Positions 36,622-42,677 of a stretch of DNA of 64,000 bases are shown piece by piece. Under the pieces are notes generated by a model. That model did no database searches. It was given only the letters and a program-made list of their open reading frames with translations, and was not told the origin of the DNA. This DNA comes from Oscillospiraceae bacterium (lineage in GTDB: Bacteria; Bacillota; Clostridia; Oscillospirales; CAG-272). The stretch spans positions 2,762 through 66,761 of the forward strand of contig SVTB01000001.1 of assembly GCA_015064015.1 (NCBI GenBank). The letters run 5' to 3'. The position numbers were made by a program, and so were the translations under genes. Position 1 is the first letter of the stretch; each line of letters begins with the position of its first letter.

Positions 36622-36650
36622 ATTTTACCATAAATGATTGTCAATTTCAA
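36622..36650 (-). promoter_or_regulatory. sigma-A type promoter of the giant subtilase/Opp cluster
   Basis: Minus strand reads TTGAAA, 17 nt (ending TGG), TAAAAT, about 70 nt upstream of ATG 36550. Confidence 0.55.
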
Positions 36651-36722
36651 GAGCAAATTGTAAACATATCGTAATATATGCAATTTTCTTTTCCCCCTTC
36701 ATAAAATATTTTCAATATGGTA

Positions 36723-36751
36723 TTGATTTATTTTTGTTTTTGTGGTATGCT
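36723..36751 (+). promoter_or_regulatory. candidate promoter of the divergent lipoprotein triad
   Basis: TTGATT, 17 nt (ending TGG), TATGCT, about 110 nt upstream of ATG 36861. Confidence 0.45.
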
Positions 36752-36860
36752 AATAGAGATTGTAACAGTTAAGTCGCGTTTTGGATGCTTTTTGAAAGTT
36801 TTTTCAAGAAATCTTGCAAAGCGCTCGTCATTACCACGAATTTTACATAGGAGTTAAAAA

Positions 36861-41120: not shown

Positions 41121-41184
41121 CCCCTTCCCTATCGTAGCTTAACGGCTAAATATACACGAAAAATTTTTATTGGAGGTTCATACA

Positions 41185-42636
41185 ATGAACAAGAAAACTC
41201 TCACAGGGCTTCTGTCCGTGCTGTGCGTGCTTCTCTGCTCTTTGGTGATCTTCTGCGCTTGCACCGGCGAAAACACCCCCGCCGAGACCAATGCGACTGA
41301 AGCACCCACCGAGGCACCCGCAACCGAGACCGTTCCCGAAACCAACGAAGAAACCAATCCCGAGACCGACCCCGAGACCGTCGTCGACGGTAAGGTCACC
41401 TACACCATCATCGTCGTTGACGCTGACGGCAACCCCGTAGAGGGTGTTGAAGTGCAGATGTGCGACGTTGACGGCACCTGCCTCCTGCCCGTAAAGACCG
41501 ACGCCAACGGTGTCGCCACCTTTGAAAAGGACGAGGCTACCTACTACGTCACCATCGCCGCTTGCCCCGAAGGCTTTGTCGCTGACAGCGAGACCAAGCA
41601 CAACTTCGCCGAGGGTACTACCGAGATGACCGTGACCATCGAGAAGGCCGCTGCAGAGCAGCCCTCCGAGGAGCCCACCGAAGAGCCTACCGAGGAGCCT
41701 ACGGAAGCTCCCACCGAGCCCGAGAAGTATCCCGCATGGGAGGATGCCAAGGACGTTGTCACTCACCAGTCCTTTGACCAGCTCTACACCGGCACCGGCA
41801 CGGCTGACGAGGCCACCAACGGCGGTCTGAATCTGTTTACCCCCGGCGCTTCCGCTGATTGGGATCGCATCGCTGACCTTACCAATTCCGATGCCACCGC
41901 CCTCACCTACTGGGGTTGGGTCGGCGTGAAGGGTACAGTTGGACAGTTCGGCTACATGATCGACGACAATACCCCCATCTACAACGACGAATGGACTCAT
42001 GCCACTGAGCAGCCCGTCATTGACGCCGCTCTCGCCTTCGGTGGTGACACCGGTTCTCGCATGAAGATCGCCATCGACCTCTCCGGTCTGATCGGCGAGC
42101 ACACCGTTCGCGTACTGTACAAGTCCGTTGACGGCGCAGAAATCACCCTTTGCCTGTTCACCGTCAAGCTGGCTCTTCCCGAGGTATATTACGCATCCAA
42201 CCACTCCTCCGACATTCTCCAGATCATTAGCACCGATCTCGTTCCCTCTGAACACGTTTACACACCCGGTACTTACAACGAGTGGGAAGAAAAGACCTTC
42301 ACCCTGAAGGTAGGCCAGACCGGCGGCTTCTGGGATCTGGGCTTTGTGGCTCTGAACACCGACGTTTATGAGTTTGGTTATCTCTTTGGCGGCGCCAGCC
42401 CTCTGAATAACGGCGCGTACTTCTTCCCCGGTGCCGCTTACACCGCTATGGTAACCGCTGATCAGCTGGCAACCGCTCAGGAGCTGGGTTACAGCACTGC
42501 CGGTGCATTCCAGTGCATGTGTGCTGAGGCCGCTCTGGGTGTTGGCGAGAACTATATCCAGGTCGTTGTTAAGCTGAACAACAGCAACGATGAGATTTAT
42601 GTACTCCGCGAGTACACCGTCATCCTCGAAGCTTAA
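41185..42636 (+). CDS. 483-aa lipoprotein: PT/E-rich linkers, CarboxypepD_reg-like domain, C-terminal beta-sandwich-like domains
   Basis: ORF 41170 (TTG) trimmed to ATG 41185, with GGAGG 8 nt upstream. Lipobox IFCAC. GKVTYTIIVVDADGNPVEGVEVQMCD..TDANGVATFE. Linker EQPSEEPTEEPTEEPTEAPTEPE. Confidence 0.85.
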   Translation: MNKKTLTGLLSVLCVLLCSLVIFCACTGENTPAETNATEAPTEAPATETVPETNEETNPETDPETVVDGKVTYTIIVVDADGNPVEGVEVQMCDVDGTCLLPVKTDANGVATFEKDEATYYVTIAACPEGFVADSETKHNFAEGTTEMTVTIEKAAAEQPSEEPTEEPTEEPTEAPTEPEKYPAWEDAKDVVTHQSFDQLYTGTGTADEATNGGLNLFTPGASADWDRIADLTNSDATALTYWGWVGVKGTVGQFGYMIDDNTPIYNDEWTHATEQPVIDAALAFGGDTGSRMKIAIDLSGLIGEHTVRVLYKSVDGAEITLCLFTVKLALPEVYYASNHSSDILQIISTDLVPSEHVYTPGTYNEWEEKTFTLKVGQTGGFWDLGFVALNTDVYEFGYLFGGASPLNNGAYFFPGAAYTAMVTADQLATAQELGYSTAGAFQCMCAEAALGVGENYIQVVVKLNNSNDEIYVLREYTVILEA

Positions 42637-42644
42637 TACTTTTG

Positions 42645-42677
42645 ATCCCACCCCTTTTTTGGGGGTGGGATTTTTTG
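42645..42677 (+). terminator. intrinsic terminator after the lipoprotein triad
   Basis: Stem ATCCCACCCC ttttttg GGGGTGGGAT followed by TTTTT. Confidence 0.85.

Follow-up and report, generated by a model that had tools for sequence, protein, structure and literature searches.

A conserved lipoprotein cassette with a TlpA/ResA-type redoxin in uncultured gut Oscillospiraceae, frequently encoded opposite a cell-envelope proteinase

In the lactococcal PrtP-PrtM-Opp system, an S8 cell-envelope proteinase with PA and Fn3 domains is encoded divergently from a lipoprotein gene and is tied to oligopeptide import, the lipoprotein PrtM being a PrsA-like peptidyl-prolyl isomerase (PPIase). Streptococcus pneumoniae has two small surface lipoproteins of the thioredoxin family, Etrx1 and Etrx2, which are encoded with CcdA and MsrAB2 and act in methionine-sulfoxide repair (PMC3914529). 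Hardly any work has addressed how strictly anaerobic Firmicutes manage thiol redox outside the cytoplasm, or how uncultured Oscillospiraceae of herbivore and human guts attack protein substrates. A 64-kb stretch of contig SVTB01000001.1 from an Oscillospiraceae bacterium (the window) contains three consecutive plus-strand lipoprotein genes, here called A, B, and C, adjacent to a gene for a proteinase with a leucine-rich repeat (LRR) region, here called S8-LRR, and to the genes of an Opp-type importer (Table 1). In uncultured gut Oscillospiraceae, A, B, and C make up a conserved set of lipoproteins of the cell surface, here called the cassette, and A is predicted to be a surface-tethered TlpA/ResA-type thioredoxin-fold protein, with a lipid anchor, linker, and sandwich stalk and an intact CxxC.

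The preliminary description of this locus, made from the sequence without database searches, stated that none of the C-terminal regions of the three proteins matches a recognizable family, which does not hold for A. Residues 157 to 288 match Redoxin/AhpC-TSA (E=2e-18), with scores over aa 157 to 281 of 67.2 bits for Redoxin (PF08534; cut-off, 26.6) and 61.7 bits for AhpC-TSA (PF00578; cut-off, 26), and ResA is both the closest NCBIfam model and the closest solved structure (4nmu, E=1e-16). The CxxC follows the sequence FWYTT, a GYPTT motif provides the cis-Pro, and an alignment of 21 homologues shows conservation of 90% or more for both Cys residues, the Trp, and the Pro-Thr. The family has more than 1,642 homologues, nearly all of them ~940 aa long. 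The exact A protein is named "TlpA family protein disulfide reductase" at NCBI (Ruminococcaceae/Oscillospiraceae bacterium), and B is a "hypothetical protein." Because the enzymatic domain of A is in a well-known and already annotated family, the finding is not categorically new, and the triad does match a well-characterized family in part, through the TlpA/ResA thioredoxin fold of A. None of the NCBIfam cut-offs is reached (83.7 bits against 170 for ResA, 34.3 against 210 for StoA, and 30 against 230 for TlpA), so A is a member of the TlpA/ResA family but no orthologue of ResA, StoA, or TlpA.

Three more specific identities for A were considered and rejected. Orthology to ResA or StoA is ruled out by these sub-cut-off scores together with the lack of a cytochrome or sporulation context. 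The peroxidatic Cys of peroxiredoxins lies in a PxxxT/SxxC motif and not in a CxxC, and a peroxiredoxin (AhpC/TSA sensu stricto) is ruled out by the motif WYTTCSYC, a thioredoxin-type CxxC. A PrtM-like PPIase is ruled out by the lack of a rotamase domain; Pfam and NCBIfam give no rotamase or PrsA match to A, B, or C.

The three open reading frames (ORFs) and their lipoprotein starts are as first described, each with a ribosome-binding site 8 nt before its ATG. For B, the mechanical ORF begins at 39678, but an AGGAGG ribosome-binding site and the lipoprotein start place the beginning of the gene at 39858. The lipoboxes VFTGC (A), LLTGC (B), and IFCAC (C) read as claimed after signal peptides, with FTGC and LTGC fitting the consensus [LVI][ASTVI][GAS]C and FCAC fitting it more loosely, and the lipobox Cys is invariant among 41 B-family sequences. 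The T/E/P-rich linkers that follow were also correctly recognized, as were the N-terminal beta-sandwiches, although Pfam gives only sub-threshold matches to these (SpaA, CarboxypepD_reg [22.6 to 24 bits against a cut-off of 32.3], bMG3, and Big_1). Those of A and B are supported by alignment of the family profiles, which hhalign matches with 99.4% probability over signal peptide and sandwich, and that of B also by its AlphaFold model (predicted local distance difference test [pLDDT], 86.5), in which the sandwich superposes on the CarboxypepD_reg-like 3e8v (template-modeling [TM] score, 0.78) and on 9hfj (TM, 0.69).

The proposed paralogy of the triad is sound only at the level of domains, with the restriction that C has in common only the N-terminal stalk; the A-C and B-C likenesses are confined to the N-terminal part (E=2e-7 and 1e-4, respectively). 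A and B, contrary to the claim that the C-terminal domains all differ, have in common a module (BLASTP E=3e-12) that a profile matches twice in A and once in B. In A, each of two beta-rich domains is trailed by one copy of this module. B is a redoxin-less paralogue of A, consisting of the stalk, a pre-peptidase C-terminal (PPC)/collagen-binding-like domain, and one module; its middle domain has no Pfam match at E<10 and is likened by Foldseek to 5sv5 and 1nqd (probability 1.0, E ~2-4e-3, TM ~0.57), and its hhalign alignments to the beta-rich domains of A are weak (43%, 3%, and 1% probability). Pfam searches of seven sub-domains of A, B, and C at E<10 give only sub-threshold PA14/GLEYA noise, and a word-seeded search retrieves few relatives of B (69 matches) or C (44 matches).

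The shared module, here called DGYYH, is ~130 aa long and has the signature DG[YF]YH…(D/N)..G[PS]…G.C.[PV]…W[LM]..C.YY. Modeled alone, it is a small alpha/beta domain of high confidence (pLDDT, 95.3; predicted TM score [pTM], 0.87), with no match in Pfam (E<10) or among PDB sequences, and Foldseek finds no structural match to the model in PDB (best E=0.21, TM≤0.2) or in BFVD. A profile search of 1.84 billion representatives recovers at least 1,500 clusters (50% identity) at E≤1e-3, with 862 at E≤1e-10, and the best 150 clusters, judged by length and module position, are mostly A-like (two modules, ~950 aa) or B-like (one C-terminal module). Seven atypically long carriers were scanned, and these contain a redoxin (five of the seven), an Ig-like sandwich (six of the seven), and no other family. 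A structural disulfide inside the module is ruled out, as its two Cys residues are conserved in the A family and not in the B family. DGYYH is a sizeable domain family, with at least 1,500 clusters, that has a confident predicted fold and neither a Pfam model nor a detectable relative of solved structure.

C is a variable third stalked lipoprotein, and its C terminus is a variable add-on composed of two divergent copies of an unnamed domain with the motifs SFDQL…GWV…FGY and no family match; comparison of the C terminus with PDB sequences gives nothing credible. A stretch of P0095, a metallo-beta-lactamase-fold protein of related bacteria that is otherwise unrelated, has 51% identity to copy 1 and a weak similarity to copy 2. 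The idea that matches covering about one-third of C have nothing but its stalk in common with it was rejected, since P0095, the one checked, instead shares a C-terminal domain of ~150 aa; some of the other matches have discoidin domains.

A scan of species-representative genomes for A yields 79 loci (77 metagenome-assembled genomes [MAGs]). The MAGs are labeled mostly as Oscillospiraceae, Eubacteriales, or Clostridia, and the sources of the named isolates are the guts of deer, goat, yak, sheep, and cattle. Counts of gene context are from tblastn of the window proteins against these loci. A B-like gene follows A in 58 of the 68 loci with at least 2.5 kb downstream, and a third gene with a C-like stalk is present in 39/64, but the C-terminal domain of C is found in just 4/64. 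Of the 50 loci with adequate flanks, 35 have the S8-LRR proteinase gene no farther than 10 kb from A, 28 of them head-to-head as in the window and 7 downstream on the same strand, whereas the window's downstream neighbors DUF2383, rimP, and nusA, used as a control, are found in 0/64. The identity of A in loci with S8-LRR falls to ~40%, and six independent metagenomic contexts of B homologues (33 to 47% identity) agree with this pattern.

The earlier proposal that the two divergent units form one functional system draws support from this recurrent linkage, but the other 15 of the 50 loci, a minority that counts against it, have no S8 gene at 10 kb or less from the cassette; two such loci were scanned and have unrelated neighbors (a major facilitator superfamily [MFS] transporter, a FolC-like ligase, an ECF-S component, and AsnA). 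From these counts, the conserved core consists of A-B and a third stalked lipoprotein that varies, and coupling to S8/Opp is frequent but facultative. In one clade, labeled Faecousia or Oscillospiraceae (loci L061, L007, L052, and L064), the third cassette gene codes for a second redoxin-bearing stalked lipoprotein of 929 aa instead of a C-like protein.

A further association is with two membrane proteins encoded within 10 kb of A in ∼27 of the 79 loci. The first is a fusion of a NapH/MauN-like polyferredoxin (Fer4_5, with CX3CP motifs), a transmembrane segment, and an external C-terminal ResA-like redoxin (WCPGC), which scores 85 to 88 bits against the NapH model TIGR02163, below the NapH cut-off. 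Its partner is a polytopic protein of ~263 aa whose C terminus matches the NCBIfam CD1871A family CXXC model (42.8 bits against 32). In L085 and L087, which have the most distant A homologues (33 to 35% identity), this pair directly follows A. The proximity of the pair to A in these loci, including the most distant, argues for reductive electron flow; it is a plausible electron-supply route, and the NapH-like-thioredoxin fusion is a candidate alternative to CcdA/DsbD.

The reading we favor, tentatively and with a probability of about 0.4, is that the cassette is a surface disulfide-reducing system that would prepare extracellular proteins for the proteinase and for peptide import. A, as a predicted extracytoplasmic disulfide reductase, would reduce the disulfides of extracellular proteins, for example, disulfide-stabilized dietary proteins or protease inhibitors, and its accessory domains (PPC-like, other beta domains, and module) and B would bind the macromolecular targets. 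The S8-LRR proteinase would then cut the reduced proteins, and Opp would import the peptides; in most species, the cassette appears head-to-head with the genes for S8-LRR, an unnamed lipoprotein, and the Opp importer. In many related genomes, the reducing power would probably come from the adjacent NapH-like polyferredoxin-redoxin fusion and the CD1871A-like CXXC protein. Protein binding is suggested by the Foldseek likeness of the B middle domain to PPC/collagen-binding domains, a protein-binding fold.

Several points weigh against this reading. Sequence cannot separate a reductase from an oxidase or an isomerase, and the CSYC/CSWC dipeptide is atypical; substrate binding by the accessory domains is suggested only by fold resemblance. 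The 64-kb window contains no CcdA/DsbD, no CcdA-like six-transmembrane ORF, no NapH-redoxin gene, and no CD1871A-like partner. With S8 missing from the 10 kb around A in the 15 loci noted above, and also missing beside the deepest A homologues, the tie to proteolysis is optional and may reflect synteny specific to a lineage. Conservation on the Opp side was followed only as far as the substrate-binding protein gene in related loci, the flanks of which are short.

Another explanation, which we regard as unlikely, is that A, with B as an adaptor, is a dedicated maturation or activation factor that reduces or isomerizes cysteines of the S8-LRR proteinase itself, much as StoA reduces SpoVD and as the divergently encoded lipoprotein PrtM matures PrtP. 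The 28/50 head-to-head loci and the conserved control region common to both units are consistent with this, and the proteinase has 21 Cys residues. Its S8 domain is closest to streptococcal cell-envelope proteinases, with SpyCEP and C5a peptidase as the closest solved structures, and two catalytic-domain residues, C355 and C371 (in ALEDC and SLGTGCG), are invariant in 51/51 S8 homologues and are Ala at both positions in SpyCEP; they could form a redox switch, or they may be no more than free thiols that are conserved. However, 13 of the 21 are the lone buried Cys of the LRR_5 consensus and are not paired, and C355 and C371, which we take to correspond to A114 and S130 of subtilisin BPN', are on that mapping probably too distant to form a disulfide. 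Moreover, A-B is without a nearby S8 gene in 15/50 loci, two genomes have two A loci each, none of which adjoins S8, and A is without a PPIase domain of the PrtM/PrsA type.

Similarly doubtful is a general role in extracytoplasmic redox maintenance or oxidative-damage defense, like that of pneumococcal Etrx1/2, with the protease adjacency being inherited synteny and having no functional link. Surface thioredoxin-fold lipoproteins in such a role are documented (PMC3914529), a minority of species have A-B by itself with unrelated genes around it, and the NapH-redoxin linkage reaches more distant homologues than the S8 linkage does. However, neither the window nor the inspected loci contain an MsrA/B or CcdA gene, such a role would leave the B paralogue and the accessory region of ~650 aa unexplained, and an S8 adjacency of 70% of loci, against 0% for other neighbors, is hard to ascribe to chance. 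It is very unlikely that A, B, and C are mainly adhesins or scaffolds with a secondary or vestigial redoxin, their modules binding the proteinase through its BspA-type LRR region, further LRR_5 proteins, or polymers of host or plant origin. Ig-like, PPC-like, or lectin-like beta domains on stalks do make up all three, and a BspA-type LRR_5 protein is still within ~10 kb of A in 10 S8-less loci (among them L046, the third such locus scanned, with two upstream), but an LRR association is not established, and the conserved CxxC, preceding Trp, and cis-Pro argue for an active site under selection.

The region separating the divergent S8-LRR and A genes is 310 bp, as first reported. The minus-strand member of its proposed back-to-back promoters was recovered by the scan, whereas the plus-strand member, read from the sequence, falls short of the scan threshold (8/12 matches) but is part of a conserved block. 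Promoter-like matches show no enrichment relative to shuffled sequence (8 versus 5.9±2.0). In an alignment with four related species, blocks at ~36630-36678 and ~36698-36775 are nearly invariant and coincide with both divergent promoters and adjacent sequence, and the 5' untranslated region of A is not conserved. A 17-nt direct repeat, CATAAATGATTGTCAAT / CATAAAATATTTTCAAT, is present at 36629 and 36700, 71 nt apart, with one copy per divergent promoter, and within 36629-36716 a 48-nt block is nearly invariant in the five species; block and repeats are a probable regulator-binding site. No CodY box was found in the control region, and an Rfam search of the window gave no element. The terminator and promoter previously assigned to B are only partly its own, as the promoter-like site at 39778-39806 is present but the terminator at 39693 ends A. 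Because this terminator, the promoter-like site, and AGGAGG precede the B start, A is probably its own transcription unit, and B-C is probably a bicistron that ends at the terminator following C.

On the other side of the control region, the 474-aa lipoprotein encoded between S8-LRR and the importer genes has no Pfam or NCBIfam match and contains a GLUG-like stretch, YGGLFG; its true start is probably MKKIGK at 29075. Among the scanned loci, 37 have it, always beside the S8-LRR gene and with identities as low as 27%, and it is followed by an SBP_bac_5 gene wherever the flank is long enough (8 loci); a metagenome scan with this protein gave one close relative only, on a 3-kb contig. The Opp-type binding protein of the window is itself unusual, at 874 aa versus a typical ~540, and its SBP_bac_5 match is limited to aa 489 to 768, so that a large part of it, the N-terminal half, is unexplained. 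A gene on the same strand, immediately downstream of those for the Opp ATPases, codes for a secreted protein of 750 aa in which PT repeats accompany a NAGPA phosphodiester-glycosidase domain. Elsewhere in the window, the product of infB (IF-2) has near its N terminus a long repeat of the (AAEKA)n type and, after it, a low-complexity stretch rich in R/D/N/Q.

Table 1. Coordinates of the lipoprotein cassette, its control sites, and associated genes (positions are those of the window unless a locus or protein is named)
Feature	Position	Strand	Remarks
Gene A	36861-39677	+	938-aa lipoprotein; TlpA-family redoxin and long C-terminal extension
A, N-terminal beta-sandwich stalk, aa ~56-150	37026-37310	+	Sub-threshold SpaA/SdrD_B
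A, Redoxin/ResA-like thioredoxin fold, aa 157-288	37329-37724	+	
A, CxxC (C194-S-Y-C197)	37440-37451	+	Inside redoxin domain
A, beta-rich domain, aa ~300-480	37758-38300	+	No Pfam match at E<10; no PDB sequence match
A, DGYYH module copy 1, aa 489-605	38325-38675	+	hmmsearch 133.8 bits; BLASTP against B
A, second beta-rich domain, aa ~620-760	38718-39140	+	Sub-threshold PA14/GLEYA only; possibly same kind as B middle domain (hhalign, 43% probability only)
A, DGYYH module copy 2 with helical insert, aa 769-933	39165-39659	+	hmmsearch 107.9 bits; alignment
Gene B	39858-41120	+	420-aa lipoprotein
B, sandwich	aa 49-133	+	Foldseek 3e8v, 9hfj
B, PPC/collagen-binding-like middle domain	aa ~140-255	+	Foldseek 5sv5, 1nqd
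B, DGYYH module, aa 283-420	40704-41117	+	BLASTP, profile search; modeled alone
Gene C	41185-42636	+	483-aa lipoprotein; sandwich aa ~69-150, PT linker
C, two copies of ~150-aa unnamed domain	41725-42633	+	
Divergent control region, S8-LRR/A	36551-36860		310 bp
Promoter-like site, S8-LRR operon	36650-36622	-	TTGAAA-17-TAAAAT, TG; scan; in conserved block
Promoter-like site, A	36723-36751	+	TTGATT-17-TATGCT, TGn; read from sequence; conserved in 5 species
Intrinsic terminator after A	39693-39718	+	11-bp stem, then T-tract
Promoter-like site, B-C	39778-39806	+	TTGCAA-17-TATAAT, TG; scan
Strong intrinsic terminator after C	42644-42672	+	Scan; synteny stops here
S8-LRR	29183-36550	-	2,455-aa membrane-anchored cell-envelope proteinase; S8, PA, Fn3_5, BspA-type LRR_5
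S8-LRR, C355 and C371	35438-35488	-	S8 catalytic domain
Rest of operon	20793-29153	-	Unnamed 474-aa lipoprotein, 874-aa SBP_bac_5, OppB/C/D/F
474-aa lipoprotein	27729-29153	-	
Opp-type binding protein	25105-27729	-	
750-aa secreted protein	18171-20423	-	
infB	45793-48858	+	
NapH-redoxin/CD1871A pair	L004:12353-14740	-	
NapH-redoxin/CD1871A pair	L002:14066-16816	-	
NapH-redoxin/CD1871A pair	L085:12125-14930	+	
BspA-type LRR_5 proteins upstream of A	L046:1-2403 and 5175-7538		S8-less locus
Second redoxin-bearing stalked lipoprotein	L061:13211-16000		

A literature search found no description of the 650-aa accessory architecture, of the DGYYH family, of the A-B pairing, or of its coupling to a proteinase/Opp operon and a NapH-redoxin fusion. 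If the disulfide-reducing reading is true, a surface reductase coupled genetically to a proteinase and an importer would explain the hindgut digestibility of disulfide-stabilized dietary proteins and protease inhibitors. A bolder proposal, and quite an unlikely one, is that A-B and, from related genomes, the NapH-redoxin fusion and the CD1871A-like protein together form a pathway, not yet described, by which Gram-positive anaerobes of the gut reduce disulfides outside the cytoplasm, with an Fe-S membrane conduit instead of CcdA/DsbD and with DGYYH as a new fold directing the reductase to protein substrates or LRR surface enzymes; this would be the "reduce" step of a reduce-digest-import process for disulfide-rich proteins.

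Each of the known systems resembles a part of this locus. A shares with Etrx1 and Etrx2 the character of a lipid-anchored, surface-exposed thioredoxin-fold protein of a Gram-positive bacterium, but the Msr/CcdA partners of the latter were not found in the window or the inspected loci. The Fer4_5 protein and CD1871A CXXC domain of related A loci are as in NapH/MauN and CD1871A-family proteins, although the polyferredoxin of those loci, which is absent from the window, is fused to a C-terminal external ResA-like redoxin. The B middle domain superposes on the PPC/collagen-binding domains of clostridial collagenases (5sv5 and 1nqd), but it has no Pfam PPC match and is not attached to a protease. 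A has in common with ResA, StoA, TlpA, and CcmG the thioredoxin fold, the CxxC, the cis-Pro loop, and the extracytoplasmic tether, but those proteins are ~180 aa long, whereas A adds ~650 aa of unnamed domains; their CxxC dipeptide is EP, PP, or VP rather than the SY or SW of the A family, and A has no cytochrome-c, sporulation, or CcdA genes nearby. In its organization, the locus parallels PrtP-PrtM-Opp, from which it differs in that A is a redoxin and not a PPIase and that S8-LRR contains BspA-type LRRs and is anchored by a transmembrane segment at its C terminus, and with which it shares divergent S8 proteinase and lipoprotein genes together with oligopeptide import.

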